From the NCBI GenBank assembly GCA_030264375.1, contig JASCQW010000081.1, positions 73,114,202 through 73,178,201 of the forward strand: a stretch of DNA of 64,000 nt, given 5' to 3'. The notes beneath the pieces are model-generated. The model saw nothing but the letters and a program-made list of their open reading frames with translations, searched no databases and had not been told where the DNA came from. The DNA comes from Carcharhinus longimanus (lineage: Eukaryota). A program made the position numbers and the translations under genes. This document shows positions 23,701 through 55,721 of the stretch, piece after piece. Each line of letters opens with the position of its first letter. The first letter of the stretch is position 1.

Positions 23701-25014
23701 GATTTGGGGCACTAAGGGAATCAAGAAAAATGATGCAAACTCTGCACAAAATATCACAAATCCTGTAGTGAGTGTTGATGTCCAAAGTTGAGGTATCATC
23801 TTAATGAGTGGCACAACAGGCATTCCTGCTCCTACTACTTATAAGACCATGGTTTGATGATGGTAAAACTCACTATCCGTTCCCAGACCCACTGGTGAAT
23901 ATGCGATGCTACAGCGTGCCCACTAGTCCTACACGATAGTACTGTGAGGTATTAGCCGAGGACAACAAAAATTATTAGTGCACAGCCTCAAAAAGCATTA
24001 GTGACAGTGTTTTAATCCCATGTCACTATCTCCAGGCCAACGTTTTCCATTCCCAAATACGTCCACATGGATGTTCTTGACCATTAAGCATGCAAAGATT
24101 CCAACATGGCTGCATGAGAGCAAAACTAAAATATAGATAATCATCATAAAAACCACATGTTAAATTCTCAAATTACAAAAGTATATAATCATTTCCCAAA
24201 GCAGGAAATGTACAGAAATGTACATTGCTTCTTCCTTCCATTCCCTGATAAGGTCAGATCTTCTGTACGCTCCCACCCACTGACAGCTAAACTAAGACTG
24301 ACCAAACTCATTTGTTTCTGGGATGTTTGGCAGCTGGAGGGAGCTGGCTTTCTTCCCACCAGTCTGGGCCCGATTCCAAACTGCGTAATACAGAGGTGAA
24401 AGGCTAATGCTCCAACCCACTGTGCCACCTGCTCCTTCCATCTCCTACAGTTAGGAACCAACAACATTTAACAGCTCAAGAGTTTCAGCTAATGCTATCT
24501 GGGTCAAGTGAAAGAACTGTTTCATTGCTTCCAACCACGTAGCATCTTCAGCAGACTCCATGGAGAGGCGTATAATTGGAACACATATGCAAATGATCAG
24601 TGACATGCTTTCTCAAGTGTAAAATATCTTTACTTTGAGTGCTGCTGGAATTCTGACTGACCCCAAGGGAAAACGTCCATAATGGTTTAAAAAAACATAT
24701 CAAATGAGTGTAGAATTTACTCAGATTCAACTCCACATTTACACTCAGAAGGGAGGGATGACAGAATGCTTAGGCTCAGGAGCTGGAAAATGTCATTGGG
24801 AATCAGTGCAGTAAGGGGACATTTGAGGTTAGCTCAATTCAATCCAGCCAATCATGGCAGAAAACATGGCAGCCAGGCCCACTAAATCACACGGGAGGCT
24901 ACGTGTCAGTCTGCCAAAAGCAGAAAAACATTTCACAATTAAGTCGGAGGTGGGAAAGGGTCCATTGAGGTGGTGGCGGGTGGGGGGGGGTAGGGTGTCA
25001 GAGGTTCATCAGTG

Positions 25015-25238
25015 TGTCAATATACTATTAATCATAGTGTATGGCAATGACCTTGTTAAGGAAATTGCTAGTTAAACATGCAACATTGATTATACTATAA
25101 ATAGAGACAACTGGAACACTTTGGGAGAAGAGTTTCTTGTTGGTTGGGAGAACTGAGGAAGTGTCTTACAATAAACCAGCTTGAACTGCAATGACCAGTC
25201 TGAATCGATCCTTCCATTGTAGCCATTTGTTGTGAATA
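25015..25238 (+). repeat. 5' LTR of the Copia-like element
   Basis: Starts TGTCAA, contains TATAAA and AATAAA, aligns to 31435-31642; followed by degenerate iMet-PBS-like taggagcaaaggatg (25243-25257). Confidence 0.82.
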
Positions 25239-25317
25239 CCAATAGGAGCAAAGGATGAGCACTAAGGTTGGTGATTGACTGCTACACATGAAGACTTCTG
25301 TCTCAATCTTCTGAGGA

Positions 25318-25370
25318 AAATCAAGTGTAAATCAAGTGTAAATCAAGTGTAAATTAAGTGTAAATTAAGT
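25318..25370 (+). repeat. 11-bp tandem repeat (aaatYaagtgt) x ~5 in the Copia leader
   Basis: Directly visible just upstream of the gag ATG. Confidence 0.85.
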
Positions 25371-27475
25371 TATGGAATGGCAGAAGGACAGTGCAAAATT
25401 GCAAGTTTGGCTTATCCATCAATTTTTCTGACTCTGAACCATATTAGCAATGGAAAGCTGAAGTAGAAGTGTGGATCTGGGTTATTTCCACATCCTAAAA
25501 GGAGCAAGTATTGGCATCATAGCATTGTTGCTACTGCCCAAAAGAAAGATGAGTAAAGTGTTTTCAGGGTGGAAAGTGGATAATCTAAATCAAGATGAAG
25601 GATCGCACCTTCTGTAACATTCTTTGGATAAATTTTACAAAAAGGACAAGTTATTGGAAGCCTATGAAGCTGGGCCAATCTTTGATAAGTTAAAGAAATC
25701 AGAGGATCCATCTATGAGAGAATATATCATGGATTTTGATAGATGTTACAAGAGACTATAAAGATTTGCATTTGAAATTCCAGAATCTGTATTGACATTT
25801 AAGTTCCTGGAGTCTGCCTGCGTTTTCCACATTGATAATCCTTTAATACTAACAGGGGTTAAATTCCCAGGGAAAGAATCTTACCCAGATCAAATGCCTA
25901 TGGCCCTAAAAAAATTCTGGGAAAACAATCGTTCCCAGCCACTCTCTTTGCAAATGCAAACAAAAATGTTATGAAATAAAAAAATAGAGGACTCAATGAT
26001 GGTGCAATGCTAGTGCTGACCAAATACTAGATGAAAATTCCAATACAGAGATGAGGTTAATGTCCAGAGTTCTGAAAACCTGTTTGAAGGTTGGGATAAA
26101 AAGCACACCTGATATGGTAAGCGTTTAAACCCAAAAAATGCATTGGGCATAGCTAATCAGCATTTCTAGCACAATTCCTAGTATCGTTATATGATGGATG
26201 GAACTATCCATAGCAAAGGAACCATGTTTTTGAAGTAGCCCATGAGACTGATTTATCTGAGATTGAAAATGGTGATGGTGACTGCCATGATGGAATTGTA
26301 TTGGTCATTGAAAATTTGATTCCCATAACGAGCATATTGATGGTTGACTCCTTCAACTGTGAAGTTTTGGATAGTGGTTGCACTTCTACAGTGCATTGTA
26401 TGGATTGATTTAACTGTTATCTGGTGTCTCTCAATGAGACTGGCAGAAGGTCTGACTTGGAGGTGATAATATATTAACATTCTCCAAATGGGTGGTCCTC
26501 CTTTTCAAGATCACAGGGATTAATCTGTATTGACGTGGTTTCTTGTGAGATACTACTATTGATCTGTGAAGTTGGCTCAGATGATGCTATATATGAATGA
26601 TTGAGCTATCATGTTTAGAAAATGTATGGACCTTTAGTTTAGTTGATCAGGGCAATAGTGCTTACCACTAAAGAAGCTAGAGATTGCTCATCAAAATATT
26701 CAAAGTTTTGCTAACCACTCTTAAGAAATTTGGAAATTACAGTTTGCACATCCAGCTCTGCCAGAAACTGAAGACTCTACTCTGTGATGCAGGAGAGTTT
26801 GATGAAGGATACAATGACCACCTTGAACAAATCACTGCTTGATGCAAACTCTGCATAAAATATCACAAATCCTGTAGTGAGTTTGCCAGTAGGCAGTGAG
26901 TTTAATGATGCCATCATAATGGACTTGAAAGTTTGAGACAAGGATAGGGCTATTTATAAACTACACTTTCTAGGCTAAATCTGGTTGCCATATCTATCCA
27001 CCATGATGCATACTAAGACAAAAGAATCATTGTTGATAGGGTCATGGAGAAATGGGTAGCAACAGGATTAGGAACACTGATAAAGTTCCTGACAGATAAT
27101 GGTGAGGAATTTGTCAATAATGAATTTCAAGATGTGTGCAAAAATCCAAACATTGTAGTTATGCACACAGCAGCTGAAAGGCCATTTAGTAATGGTCTTT
27201 GTGAAAGAAACCATGCAGTAATAGATACTGATATGATATTGGATGACCCACCAGATTATAATTTGCAAACGGCATTGGCATAAGCAACACATGAAGAACT
27301 CTCTTTGCAAACGGTTGGGTTACAGACCATTCCAGTTAGTGTAAGAAAGCATGGAAGGCAGCTTTGGATTTCTATCAGATGCCCCCCTGCTCTAGAAGGA
27401 AATAGCATTAGCTCGACTTTTTCTGCTTATCCGAATGCCTTGCAAGCAGGCAGAGAATCTTTCATTAAAGCTGAG

Positions 27476-28785
27476 GACTACCTGGATCCACTACAGTTAG
27501 CGTTTTGCCACAACAGGTCCACAGCAGACGCCATCTCCCTGGCTCTGCACTCAACCTTGGAACACCTAGATAACAAGGACACCCATGTCAGACTCCTATT
27601 TATTGNNNNNNNNNNNNNNNNNNNNNNNNNNNNNNNNNNNNNNNNNNNNNAAACTCCACGTCCACCTGTGACAGGACCCTGAACTCCCTAACTCATAGAC
27701 CACAGTCAGTAAAGATAGGTAACAACACCTCCTCCACGATCATCCTCAACATCAGTACCCCACGCGGCTGTGCTCTCAACCCCTTACTATACTCCTTATA
27801 CACCAATGATTCTGTTGCCAAATTCCCCTCAATTCGATTTTCAAGTTTACTGACAACACCACTGTAATAGGTTGGATCTCAACGATGAGACAGAGTGCAG
27901 GAATGAGATAAAGAATCTGGTGAACTGGTGCAGCAACAATAATCTCTCCCTCTGTCAACAAAACAACTCCTCATGGTACCAGTAAAACATTGCGGGGTCT
28001 GCCTTTAACTGAATGCAGCCTGATTTCAACAGAACAGACCATAATCTTGATGGATCATGCAATCTATAGACACTTGTTTAATTTGCATAGTTTTCCTTCA
28101 ACTTCAGGAAGCATGAAGGAGAACATGCCCTGTCTACATCAATGAGAATGAAGTACAAAGGGTCAAGAGCTTCAAGATTTTGTGTGTCCAGATCACCAAG
28201 AACCTGTCCTGGTTCCCCCCACCCATGCTGACACTATAGTTAAGAAAGCCCACCAATGCCTCTACTTTCTCAGAAGACTAAAGAAATTTTGGCATGTCAG
28301 CTACAACTCTCTCCAACTTTTACAGATACACCATAGAAAGCATTCTTTCTGGTTATATCACAGCTTGGTGTGGCTCCTGCTCTGCCCAAGACCACAAGAA
28401 ACTACAAAATGAATGTAGCCCAATCCATCACGCAAACCAGCCTCCTATCCACTGACTGTCTATACTTCCCGCTGCCTCAGCAAAGCGGCCAACATAATTA
28501 AGGGCCCTACGCACCCCGGACATTCTCCCTTCCACCACCTTCTGTCAAGAAAAAGCTACAAAAGTCTGAGATCACGTACCAAGACTCAAGGACAGCTTCT
28601 TCCCTGCTGCTGTCAAACTTTTGAATGGACGTACTTTCTGTACAGCCTAGCTATGACTTTAACACTACATTCTGCACTCTATCTTTTCCTTTTCTGTGAA
28701 TAGTATGTTTTGTCTGTATAACGTGCAAGAAACGATACTTTTCACTGTATGTTAATACACTTGACAATAACAAATCAAATCAAAT
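27476..28785 (+). mobile_element. 5'-truncated Rex1/Babar-type LINE nested in the Copia pol
   Basis: [40 protein letters not shown]; KKAHQCLYFLRRL; (caaat)n tail. Removing it rejoins the host sequence FIKAE|VSE. Confidence 0.85.
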
Positions 28786-30731
28786 GGTATCGGAGAGAAA
28801 TTAGCAAGCCCTACACACCACATAAAGCCATCCAGGATACCATTTTGGCAAGGAGATATGGTATGCTATGAAAGAGAAGGCCAAAGAGTAGAAAGGGCCT
28901 GGCAAGGTAACGGAATGTTGGGGAAGTACAATCTGGTAATCAACCTGTTCGGACACATTCTTAGTTGCTGACTGATACTGACTATCCAGTCACAGGTCCT
29001 GAACAACACGAAGTTAGGAGGCATCATGCACTTCACACATACTGGGTAATTATGAAGATCAGATGATGGGAAAACACAAGGTTGACAGTCTATGAGCAAA
29101 GTAATACTGAGGCACAGGATGACCCTGTCTGTTCAAAAGGGCAACTATCTAAAAGTGGGCACAAAGATAACATACATACCAGGAGAAACCAGTGTGTGCG
29201 TGAATGCCACTATAATAGGGAGAGCAAGAAAAGCCTCTGGTAAATACAAAAATTGGCTGAACATGCAGAAGAAACGTCAAGAAACAAGATCTATGGATTG
29301 GCAAAATGACCCAAAAAGCATAACATCAGTTCTGACACTGATCCAGAAAATGACCACAGACCCAGAAATAAATCACAAACTTGCGAATGAGATTCTGTTC
29401 ATATGAGAGGAAGATCATATGATAGTAGTCCAGAAAGGGCCAGGAATGCAACCCCAGGCCATAGTTTAACAAGAACTAGGCTAAGAGAGGAAGCTAGCAA
29501 TCTCAATAGAAGTCCTCATGACCAGGAGGTTTTAATATTGCTAATGAAAGATGCCAAACAGAGTTAGAAAGTTGATTGGAATTTGGAGTATGTACTGAAG
29601 TACCTGATAGGGGACAGCCCTCTATTGCAGCAGTACCTCTGTACAGACAAGGTATTCCCAGACGCCACGTATAGAACAAGATTAGTAACCCCAAGGCTTT
29701 GCATAGACATTATGGGAACAGGATGTTGGAGTGGATTCACCTACTGCAGGGCAAGTGACTCTGAAGTTTTTTTGGCTATTTTGGAATTGTATTTCTAGGA
29801 ATGGAAATCTATTAACATGAAGACTGCATTTTTACAAAGAGAGAAATTTCAAAGAGAAGTGCTTTTGAAACCTCTCTCCCAAAGAAGTTAGTGATGTTGA
29901 AGGAAAGCTATGGAAATTAAACAAGTGTCTGTAGATTGATCCATCAAGATTATAGTCTGTTCTGTTGAAAACAGGCTGCATTTAGTTAAAGGCAGACCTT
30001 GCAATGTTTTACTGGTACCATAAGGAGAAACTATAAGGGGAATTTTCATCATGTATTGTGATGATTTCCTGCGGGGAGGCGCTGATGGATTTGAACAAGG
30101 AGTGATTGAGAAGTTAAAGAAGGAATTCAAGGTAGGAAGTCAGGCTCCAGGGGCCTTTTAATACTTGTTTTGCTTAATGTCTAAATCTATGTTAGGAGTA
30201 ACACTGAATCAACAGTCTTATCTAGAAAATATTAACCATATCTCTACAACTTGGGCTAGATCCTCACAAAAAGAGGATCCAGCTACCAAGGAAGAAAGAG
30301 AACTGAGAAGTTTGATCGGGCAGTTGAACTGGTTGTTCACCCAACCTAGACCTGATTCTAGATGCGATGTGATAGAGTTGAGTACCATGATGAAACATGC
30401 TTCAGATGAGGAAATTCTGAGACCAAATAAAACACTGAAAAAGTTACATTTAGAAAGATGCATGCTCTCAGGCCAAGCCTTGGGCAATCCAAAGATGTGA
30501 GGTTGGTCATTTTTGTTGATGCTTCTTTACACGCCAATCTCAGATGGGTACTCTAGTCCAGCACAGCTTTTCATATTCTTAGTAGGAATAACTGAGAAGT
30601 GTTCTCTATTGGCTTGGGAGGCCAAGAAAATAAGAGTCACAAAAAGCACCTAAGCTGTTGAAACACTGGCATCGGTAGAAGTATTAGATATGGGGGTTTA
30701 CTTGTCCAACATCTTGTCAAATTTTATATTT

Positions 30732-31030
30732 GAATCATAGAATCCCTACAGTGCAAGAGGAGGCCATTCTGCCCGGCAAGCCTGCACTGACAACAATCCC
30801 ACCCAGACCCTATCCCACATAACCCCATGTATTTACCCTGCTAATCCCCCTGACATGAAGGGGCAATTTAGCATGGCCAATCAACATAACTTGCATATCT
30901 TTGGAGTGTGGGAGGAAACTGGAACACCAGTGGAACCCCACACAGACACAGCGAGAATGTGCGGAGTTTGCACAATCATCCAAGGCAGGAATTGGCACTG
31001 AGGTAGCAGTGCTAACCACTGTGCTATCCC
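30732..31030 (-). mobile_element. HE1-like V-SINE nested in the Copia RNase H
   Basis: Minus-strand gcacagtggttagcactgct head, V-domain and CR1-type tail. Confidence 0.8.
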
Positions 31031-31434
31031 TTAGGGGCAATGTGAGAAATGTGGAATGTTACGCTGACAGTGGTCTTTGGGACAACGTTCATTCAATAAA
31101 GAATGTGACAAAGAAAAGGCTAAGAATAGATTTAGCCACCATATAAGAGATGTTAGAGAGAAGAAAAACCTCTTCAATGGGTTGACAAGTCACCAGCTAT
31201 TGGACTGTTTCACAAAAAAGAAATGCCTGCTCCAAGAAATTACTAAATGTATTTGAACAGGGCATCTTCTGTTATAGTTGAATGAAAAATCAATTTCTGG
31301 TTTATAATGGTTTATGTATATTATATAAAGGAATTACAGGATTTATAGATGTGAAAATGTGAGATCATTTATTTCTGTTCAGATTCAAAAGAACGTCTTT
31401 CTTTTCCAAAGCTTTAGTTTAAAAGAGGGGTATC

Positions 31435-31642
31435 TGTCAATGTACTATCAGTGCATGGCAATGACCTTGTTAAGGAAGTTGCTAGTTAAATATGTGACAT
31501 TGATTGTCCTATGAATAGAGACTCGGGGGGGATGAGCTTCTTGTCAGTTAGCAGCACTAAGCAAGTGTCTTTACAATAAACTGGATTGAACCTAAACAAA
31601 CACCTTGGATTGATTTTTCCATCACAGCCACTTGTTGTAACA
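31435..31642 (+). repeat. 3' LTR of the Copia-like element
   Basis: TG...CA termini, 4 nt after a polypurine tract; aligns to the 5' LTR. Confidence 0.85.
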
Positions 31643-33909
31643 GAGTCAATTGACACCAATTATTCCTGCTCCCAAAAGTTTATAGGTGGATTAGGGATTA
31701 AATGGGAGTCTGCGGGGTCTTCCTGTGACTCCTGTAGTTTGTCCAGCAAACCTTGTTTGGTTTGTCCAGCAAACCTTGTTTGTTTGGTTTGCTTGCAATC
31801 ACGCACTGAGGAATTCCCTCATTCAGAGGTATTCAGTTCTTACTCATCAGGAAGGTGGATCTGTTGAAAGCTACTCATCTGCCCTTGCCTCTGACCTCCT
31901 CCCCTGCACACTATTCACCATCCTAATGACAACCCCGCAACATATCCCCCGTGACTGCCCTCCCGCCCCACTCAACTTTGTCCAGGGATTTGGCAATGAT
32001 CCTTGGTGAAGTCCTTAAAGCATTACCAGCAGCTGCCACTGCTCCCAGTGGCACTGCTGGCAAAGAGCAGCAGCTGGCCTCTAGCCAATAGCTCTCAGGA
32101 GTCAGAGTTTCTACTCCGCACTGCCCCCCCCTCAGAAATCCTATGGAGACCCCCAATGTAGAATCGACTAAATGTCTGATGGACACTTAATTTTGTCAGG
32201 CTTCCCCTATGGAAGTGATGTCGTGTTCTTCTGGAGAACCCAAACTTGAGGTTGCAAATGCAAGATAGTCACTTGTAAAACTAATAGGGAATTCAGGAAA
32301 AACTTCTTTACCCAAGGATTTGGAACTCACTACCATATGGGATAAGTGAAATTAATTGCATAGGGGAAGTTAGATAAGCATGAGGGAGCAAACAATAGGA
32401 TAGGGTAGGAGAAGGTTTGTGAAGACGGAAGTGACCAGTCGGGCTGAATGGTCTAATTTTGCAATGCACACTTGATGGAAGAGTGTTTTATATCTTGCAC
32501 TGTATTATGGGTCAACTTCAAGGTACAGTGCCATGTGATAAACACCTCTCTCTCTCTCAATGTGACAAACGGTCAAGAAGGAAAATTCTGGTTCAGTAAC
32601 AATTCAAGGGGCAGTATGAATGTAGATGGAAGGATACCTGAATGGGGTAAAGAGAAAGATATATGATAGTATTTGGTAGAGTATTCCAAGCCAGCCTTTG
32701 TGCATTATGAGAGCTATTGAGGGTGTTATAGAGGGAAATAAGCAAAGGGTTCTGTGAGAAGTAACCCAGATGTCAAGATATAAAGAGTAACAACTGAATT
32801 TTCACGCAAAAACTATTTTTTCAGATAGAAAACATCCTTACAAGAGATGATTAACTATTAGAATGCTGACACAGGGAAACTCTCTCCTCCTTTGGCTATC
32901 CAGTCATATTTCATTCTTCAGCTCTCTGATACAAGATAATCTCAATATGTCACAGAAATAGGGCCAATAGCAGGAATATACTTGTTATAATCAATGATTG
33001 AAATATAACCAACAAAAAAACACCAACCTCTTAATCTGTTCTCTACACTTTCCTCAACTTCCACTGCAACCCCCTATCCCCCTTACTGTTACAAAAACAG
33101 AAAAGTCAATTATTCCTCTGCTTTAATGAGGTTGAACAAGTTTGAAATAATTGAGACTCAATGGTCTGAAGCCTGAGTTTAAAGAACTGCATTCCAGAAG
33201 ATGTAGAAGACTAAAATGTTCACATTAGTGTTTTTTTTATATCAAAACCAGGAAGCAGATCACTTAATGAATATATTCTCATTATACTTCCCTGCGGTTC
33301 AACTGCACCACACACCCTATTTAAACTATCTTCTTGCCTTCAGTGCCAACTCCTTTAGGCCCTCTGCTCAGCTGCATGACATGATACAACTGACTTTGAA
33401 CCTGAGAACAACATCAGCCTCAATCAGACTCTCCGTTTAGTACCATCACCTGCCTTGATTTGGGTCGTAGTCATGCTGTACTGCACAGTCCAACTTCCAA
33501 TTTTGTATGGTCACTTGGAGTAAACTACACGACTAACTGCAAAATTGTAGCTAGCTTGGAAGCATACATCATCCATTCCAATCCTAAAATCACATCACAT
33601 TAAAATGTTAATGATTTCCTCCAGCTCTATAAACTCCAACAGATTCTCACATTTTCAGGAAGGAAACAAAAAAAAGTCCTGATTAATCATTGCTATAACA
33701 GTGCATGATGTATTGAAGCCAATTTAACATGCAAAATATACCAGGGGGCATTTTTCCATTCAATGGCCCATTAGAGGCTATACCCTTTATTTAGAGGTCA
33801 AAGTGTACTTGCTCGAAAGGCGAGTGTGTGAAAAAATTCAGACGCAAGTAAGATAGTGGCAGAAAGGGAAAGAGAGGAGCAGGAGACAAAACTAAATATA
33901 GATACAGAG

Positions 33910-54440: not shown

Positions 54441-55721
54441 GTGAACCTTTCCCTGGAAAGTCAATTAAAATTAAAACTAAGGCTAGAAGATATTGTGAAA
54501 ACTTTAGGCTGTTGCTTTAACCTGTTTCCAACAAGCAACAACTTTCTGCTCCAAGCCCGCCTTTTCCTGGCTCCAAGTCCAGTGCTTTCCTCTGCCAGGT
54601 TGCAATGGTTTCATTTCACTCTGCCAGTCTCCCACTCTCTTTTATCCTCTCACTTCCCTCCCGGTAATATTCTGAGGCCGTCACCAGGAATTGCCACTGG
54701 ATCCTTGAACACAAGTTACTAAGGGCTGAAAAGGGGTCGCAGGAGAAGTGAAGAGTCAATGGCAAGGACAGATGGGTAGTTCTCAGCAGACACCCACACT
54801 TCTCAAAACCGGTTCCCTCAATCAGACACTGTCTCCCAGTGAACCAGTGATCCTCTTAGATAGGCCTCTGGCAAACCCAACCAGGTTTGCTGGGCAGGCT
54901 TTGAAAACTACCAGACAACTGTGCAACTCCAATTTAATCCCTGAGCCACCTCTAAATTCTGATACACTCAGGGATAATTGGTGTCAATTGACTCATTAAA
55001 TGAACCTGACTGAAAAACTGCCACAAGAGAGCAGGTTTTGCACACTGGCCCCATCCCACCATCACGAGGAAACTGACACTCCCATGATTAAGTGAGCCCA
55101 GCTGCCAAGTTTCCTGGCGAATTAAACTGCACCTTGGAGGCTTAGGAATGATCTTATAGGAGGTCTATAAAATAATGAGGGGCATAAGTGAAATAGATAG
55201 TCAATATCTTTTCCCAAAGGCAAGGGAGAGTAAAACTAGAGGGCAGGTTTGGTGGGGGCAAGCCCCAGTGACCCAAGCCAGGAATCAAATCCGGGTCTGT
55301 GGCGCTGTGAGGCAGCAGAGCTAACCACTATGTTACCGTGCTGCCCATCAGAGCTATCATTCACTTTGTTGGACTTTCAAGCCGACATCTCTATTTTGAT
55401 GACTGAAACCTGTTTGGAAGATGTGTGTGGACAAATAACACTGAATAGTAGGTATAGTAGCAAACCATTAGCTGAGGAATAATTATTTTTCAACTGATCG
55501 GGTATCTGTGAGATCCTGCAGAGCAGTATATAGCTGTTAGCTGTATCCCCACAACAATGGACACTATTTTCAGATGTTACTTTCTTAATACAAGATGCCC
55601 TGTGAGAAACCTTTTATGATGTGGAGCCATGAATGCTTCCTGTATTACCTCTGTTTTTAAGCTGAAATTGGCTGTCAGCTCCAGTTGCCCTTTGCAGCAC
55701 GTGTTTCACTCACTATCATAC

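Follow-up and report, generated by a model that had tools for sequence, protein, structure and literature searches.

How a Ty1/Copia long terminal repeat (LTR) retrotransposon came to lie in the genome of a shark, and what has become of it there, is the question raised by positions 25015..31642 of a 64,000-nucleotide stretch of Carcharhinus longimanus DNA (GenBank assembly GCA_030264375.1, contig JASCQW010000081.1, positions 73,114,202 to 73,178,201 of the forward strand). The whole stretch is called the window below and all coordinates refer to it. The analysis confirmed that a real Ty1/Copia copy of the shark genome lies at this position. With high confidence, we read it as a dead copy running from LTR to LTR, likely of the GalEa clade, which went into an older repeat and occurs at the same position in sequencing runs under other organism labels. 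An earlier note on this DNA, made from the letters alone, had called the element full-length; this holds for its extent from LTR to LTR and fails for its state, the copy being dead and holding a long and a short interspersed nuclear element (LINE and SINE) that the note did not mention.

Coding region, decay and nested inserts

The domain order gag, protease (PR), integrase (IN), reverse transcriptase (RT) and RNase H (RH), as proposed in the earlier note, was recovered by collinear tblastn of three intact polyproteins carrying RVT_2 and rve, with E values on the window of 2e-45 for RT-RH, 8e-34 for IN and 3e-21 for gag. Pfam rve lay ahead of RVT_2 in all of the long relatives scanned (10/10), and each of the three RVT_2 relatives tested matched the window (E 2e-45 to 9e-39). 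The window itself was too decayed for an RVT_2 match in a Pfam scan of nine read-through frames, which gave only a weak rve match in the integrase (E 0.004, below the curated cut-off). Aligned to a profile built from 24 database relatives, the window copy covers 1222 of the 1421 columns and is broken by 26 stops and 31 frameshifts; it is unable to encode working proteins, and the element likely has no function today. The gag zinc knuckle is decayed near 26200 in this copy, and among six other copies the C-x2-C-x4-H-x4-C knuckle is complete in one and partial in the remainder. The parts of the coding region and the sequences nested in it are as follows.

25374..26250 (end approximate), + strand: gag remnant (tblastn, profile alignment)
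26337..26462, + strand: protease core, with the DSGC motif at ~26370 (tblastn, profile alignment)
26690..27475, + strand: integrase, first part, with catalytic D at ~26924, D at 27097 and E at 27205 (D35E; tblastn)
26971..26997, − strand: micro-inversion of ~27 bp inside the integrase (reverse-strand match of 100% to copy L016; reverse-frame tblastn)
27476..28786, + strand: nested 5'-truncated LINE with an RT fragment (Pfam PF09004, E 4.5e-6) and an AAATC-type tail
27967..28106, − strand: inverted ~140-bp copy of the element's own RT, inside the LINE, with its source at 29892-30027
28787..29400, + strand: integrase C-terminal part and linker (tblastn, copy comparison)
29560..30729, + strand: RT and first part of RH (tblastn)
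30730..31030, − strand: nested SINE within RH, a 303-nt insert with more copies in the window, also seen in run X17
31031..31272, + strand: end of RH with an LDCFTK-type motif (tblastn, profile alignment)

Less the nested LINE and SINE, the element measures 5016 bp. The LINE (1.3 kb) is missing from the other copies of the LTR element, occurs free in L024 and L029 and shows very high depth; a gap of 45 N lies within it at 27606-27650. The inverted RT piece that it carries is 90% identical to the element's own RT, as against 68-73% for matches of comparable length in other copies, and was not found in other LINE copies; it resembles a templated insertion of local origin, such as break repair would have left. 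This piece lies 1.9 kb from its source, with ~15 nt replaced and short homology at the 3' junction, and is covered, weakly, by one single-copy-depth contig of run X1. A 43-bp stretch of the integrase region (26840-26882) recurs at 98% identity at 23731-23773, outside the element and 3.1 kb upstream, where it is possibly a second templated insertion. The micro-inversion was crossed unbroken by contigs of all four runs examined. The SINE is presumably an HE1-like V-SINE. An Rfam scan of the window gave no matches.

Element ends and insertion site

The short LTRs, the polypurine tract and the iMet-like primer-binding remnant that the earlier note had proposed were all found, together with the repeat in which the element sits.

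25015..25241, + strand: 5' LTR, 227 bp, TGT...CA, from its alignment with the 3' LTR; paralogous contigs stop at 25015
25243..25257, + strand: decayed tRNA-Met primer-binding site, 12/15 to the 3' end of the host tRNA-Met gene
31421..31430, + strand: polypurine tract just 5' of the 3' LTR, read directly from the sequence
31435..31642, + strand: 3' LTR, 208 bp, TGT...CA; X5 and X14 read across its right junction
31643..31769, + strand: older low-copy repeat hosting the insertion, which continues left of 25015

The two LTRs differ by 43 substitutions over 207 aligned columns (21%), a Kimura two-parameter (K2P) distance of 0.25 (bootstrap 0.18-0.35), which bears out the old insertion claimed before. 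Of these substitutions, 10 fall within the first 88 columns, in line with the ~10 in ~88 nt given in the earlier note, and the remaining columns are more diverged. The primer site matches the host tRNA-Met(CAT) gene at 12-14 of 15 positions in five of seven copies (the window copy and four others), the other two having no readable site; a match of at least 12/15 occurred in only 3 of 4763 random 50-nt windows.

Position 25015 is the exact start of other copies too, as seen at loose contig ends in 3 of the 4 runs listed. To the right, the flank aligns to 54868-54994, with the match beginning at base 31643, and six of seven uninterrupted copies of the repeat extend into the left flank of the element above the shuffle maximum, so that the interruption of a repeat with a relative at ~54750-55010, as first noticed from the letters, is upheld. 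At the window copy a 5-bp target duplication can no longer be recognised (3/5 positions match); among solo LTRs of the family, a 5-bp flank duplication (4-5/5 matching) is present at five of nine. The host repeat (31643-31769, 24780-24970 and 54868-54994) has eight genome matches at 72-80% identity and is old, low-copy and unclassified. The leader of the element contains an 11-bp tandem repeat (25321-25371) from which X1, X5 and X17 lack 8-22 nt, a difference implying recent expansion or contraction.

Judging from this anatomy, the 5' LTR of the live element would have driven a single gag-pol transcript, with host tRNA-Met priming the minus strand and the polypurine tract the plus strand, and integration of the DDE type would have made the 5-bp duplication. 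Decay after insertion would then have brought the stops, frameshifts, micro-inversion, LINE, SINE and local templated insertion.

Shared insertion and age

Parts of 24900-27470 were present in 19 runs of 9 studies, under seven coded organism labels and in unlabelled runs; runs X7-X13, with small word shares, were kept out of the counts. The left junction was bridged by at least 31 letters in three of the four runs examined (X1, X5 and X17), with X6 reaching 29. The right junction was bridged in X5 and X14, the 3' junction of the LINE in X5 and that of the SINE in X17. Since the same-site insertion is found in runs under other organism labels, the window copy has been inherited vertically. Over the RT-RH stretch, differences from the window amounted to 37/1998 (1.9%) in X1, 58/2020 (2.9%) in X5 and 60/1680 (3.6%) in X17. 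The LTR divergence is ~7-13 times these between-run distances, which suggests that the insertion long predates the splits concerned. An absolute date from the epaulette-shark rate of 7e-10 per generation, the one measured shark rate (PMC10587355), was rejected, the result of ~1.8e8 generations being too many to be credible.

These runs also bear on a possible origin of the element by contamination or as an artefact of assembly, for which one could point to the 16 N gaps in the window and to the intact canonical Copia pieces on tiny unplaced contigs of the assembly. The element, however, sits in a scaffold of more than 73 Mb and carries host LINE and SINE copies, and the bridging of its junctions in the runs of other studies already refutes an artefact, the probability of which we regard as negligible. 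The listed RT-RH pieces of X14 (eight, with 0 differences) point the same way, although X14 may itself be the source. The host is a shark, as had been claimed: its haemoglobin alpha scored 128 bits against PDB 1gcv and 122 against 3mkb, compared with 60 against 1cg5 and ~46-56 against the other listed single-chain entries. We take these three named structures to be from a shark, a shark and a stingray, respectively.

The family within the shark genome

The genome holds at least ~100 decayed relatives of the element in three subfamilies. The searches behind this figure give lower bounds: the RT-RH DNA search returned 232 candidates, of which 40 were scored (51 matches), the LTR search 122 candidates (40 scored) and the Pfam RVT_2 search 258 candidates (150 scored, 124 matches). 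RT-RH matches longer than 300 nt outside the window showed 68-77% identity among the 40 scored of 232, and the top pairwise DNA identity over 437 pairs of 39 RT-RH stretches was 87%. Stops or frameshifts interrupt 37 of 38 GalEa-type RT-RH copies, the exception being a 132-residue fragment. In five other copies with two LTRs the LTR p-distance was 0.15-0.26, from partial alignments. Trees separated subfamily A, which includes the window copy and is star-like (100/99), from B1 and B2. There was more than one burst of the family, all of them long ago; the three subfamilies would have burst at different old times and then died. The B1 and B2 copies (L048-L065) are somewhat less decayed than those of the window's subfamily, with best pairwise DNA identities of 78-87%.

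The earlier note had suggested looking for intact young copies. None was seen among the scored candidates (40/232 for DNA, 150/258 for Pfam), and with scoring confined to these a young copy may have escaped notice, which tempers the reading of an extinct family. Three canonical-type Copia pieces with open frames, L046, L047 and L052 (G000:C49681, C20289 and C53401), lie on tiny unplaced contigs of 0.7-1.4 kb with 34-37% G+C and are unrelated to the GalEa-type family; they stem either from contamination or from a second Copia clade that is young.

Clade assignment

The element is firmly Copia and, on its sequence, likely belongs to GalEa. Searched with HMMER, a single 112-aa frame gave 495 relatives; the decayed RT-RH frame gave no match in a word-indexed protein search, and a PDB sequence search found retroviral integrases only, with no Copia RT usable as an outgroup. 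The RT-RH shared 54% identity with the best GalEa-type relative and 27-33% with three unnamed canonical-type Copia pieces, the RT thus being nearer to GalEa-type than to canonical (branch 2, Hydra-type) Copia. Its nearest named relatives were the krill cluster of P0286 (54% RT-RH identity), in which five of nine members are named Meganyctiphanes norvegica, and Petrolisthes manimaculis P0180 (48%), in agreement with the kinship to marine-invertebrate Copia put forward earlier. In the trees the family falls with the krill and Petrolisthes proteins and far from canonical Copia. These crustacean proteins are long open reading frames that bear no clade name in the database, whereas the shark copy is decayed. 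Euphausia krill and Petrolisthes are among the GalEa hosts listed in PMC3587641 (Table S2).

The motifs were compared with the published GalEa table (PMC5445492, Additional file 5), with which the DSGC, D35E, xDAS and DCxTK motifs of the window agree. The protease motif D[ST][GA]C reads DSGC in the window, as listed for GalEa1, and is also present in two of six other copies. Against the GalEa motifs KARLVA, DxKxAF/Y, [YH]VDD, TRPD[IV], SDAS and ADCLTK, the window has the decayed forms RTRLV, NMKTAF, YCDD, PRPDS, VDAS and LDCFTK. Exact motifs, in the same order, occur in 5/16, 3/12, 3/17, 3/18, 8/19 and 0/13 of the subfamily-A copies covered; among intact database relatives, each of eight GalEa motifs is found in 90-140 of 149.

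Several points weigh against the GalEa assignment. Exact ADCLTK was present in none of the 24 copies that cover it (0/24), and the first D-D spacing of the integrase is ~55-57 in the window and its relatives, compared with the published metazoan 49-54. At position 12 of the primer site all five readable copies carry the G of the host tRNA, unlike the published GalEa 12-mer with its C. The assignment is carried by motifs and by relatives that are unnamed or named only by host, the trees being without named GalEa1, Zeco1 and Olco1, and the root of the first tree is unreliable because its outgroup rows do not form one group. To the published 12-mer, TGGTAGCAGAGC, the best copies match at 10/12, all of them decayed. 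In the published table the teleost GalEa elements Zeco1 and Olco1 have an invertebrate-like C as the twelfth base of their primer sites (PMC5445492). The primer sites of L011, L020, L023, L027 and the window copy track host tRNA-Met up to 15 nt. Three short canonical-type pieces gave an unreliable root, which was rejected; the support values used are those of unrooted trees.

Origin by transfer or descent

Eight of 41 genome rows (<290 residues) were dropped from the first tree, and 16 genome and 16 database rows from the careful one. The 16 shark rows grouped at 89/76, with four proteins including that of krill cluster P0286 as their sister (97/98), and 0.38-0.43 substitutions/site separated the shark node from the krill protein, as against 1.1-1.2 between krill and crab. 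Both the union at 97/98 and the short path favour an ancient horizontal transfer, by which the founder of the shark family would have come from a lineage of marine crustaceans, or alongside one, and then amplified using shark tRNA; this concerns the origin only. In the same direction, krill, crab and P0181 as one group were rejected (approximately unbiased test, p 1e-48, for a group picked after seeing the tree), the 120 best hits include no vertebrate-named protein, and marine transfers of these clades in general have been proposed (PMC11889832). On the other hand, most relatives are unnamed, three unnamed proteins group with the krill one, the tree holds neither teleost nor other shark references, single copies are only 54-57% identical to the krill protein, and the monophyly of the shark copies is moderately supported. 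Deep paralogy with loss would yield the same tree, since GalEa is old, which counts further against a transfer. We regard it as possible, with a probability somewhat short of even. A literature search that excluded subscription journals, Repbase, Dfam and GyDB found no report of crustacean-shark Copia transfer.

An even chance is given to vertical descent from a GalEa lineage of the vertebrate ancestor, the likeness to krill then reflecting slow RT-RH evolution and sparse sampling. GalEa has been reported in teleosts, bichir, paddlefish, tunicates, amphioxus, hemichordates and two sharks (PMC3587641, PMC11889832). Descent is further favoured by the primer site, which follows the host tRNA and so indicates that the element replicated in an animal carrying this tRNA, and by the three diverged subfamilies, which point to long residence. 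A distance of 0.38 substitutions/site nevertheless looks small for a retrotransposon across the protostome-deuterostome split, going by general rates that are uncalibrated here.

More tentatively still, and on the doubtful side, a GalEa lineage shared with krill may have entered a shark ancestor, taken up the shark tRNA as primer, burst at least three times and gone extinct, leaving fossils that LTR-similarity surveys miss and shared insertions that could date the transfer. If true, kinship with krill by transfer would give the idea, already in print, that marine Copia clades move between hosts a crustacean-shark example that can be dated. No new mechanism is revealed.

Comparison with known systems

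Copia in sharks is already known and the addition made here is small. The novelty suggested in the earlier note is weak, since the lineage is GalEa-like and Copia of that clade has already been published from sharks: Copia was reported in five sharks (PMC11889832), with 719 copies and seven GalEa clusters in Scyliorhinus canicula, 210 copies and three GalEa clusters in Carcharodon carcharias (Additional file 3) and 1-2 unclassifiable copies in the remaining three, all 10 classified shark clusters standing in the GalEa column. A whale-shark paper likewise lists Copia (PMC8455134). PMC7070016 has no mention of Copia or of sharks/chondrichthyans, and PMC5055719 has nothing on shark Copia. The window copy shares with the published clusters the presence of Copia in sharks and differs from them in its LTR similarity of only 79% over aligned columns and its nested inserts, by reason of which that survey would likely miss it (threshold, 80% LTR similarity; PMC11889832); falling below this cut-off, it suggests that the number of fossil copies is probably underestimated. 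Many fossil GalEa-type copies can be present in sharks that surveys based on LTR similarity score as nearly free of Copia, and insertions common to several species are possible phylogenetic markers.

Compared with the GalEa clade (GalEa1, CoRex1/2, Zeco1, Olco1 and Cico1; PMC3587641, PMC5445492), the shark family differs in the host-like G at primer position 12, in a slightly longer integrase D-D spacing and in that every sampled copy is dead. It has in common with the clade a length of ~5.0 kb without inserts, short TGT...CA LTRs, a tRNA-Met primer site, the 5-bp duplication seen for the family, marine hosts, and the DSGC protease, D35E, xDAS and DCxTK-type RNase H motifs.

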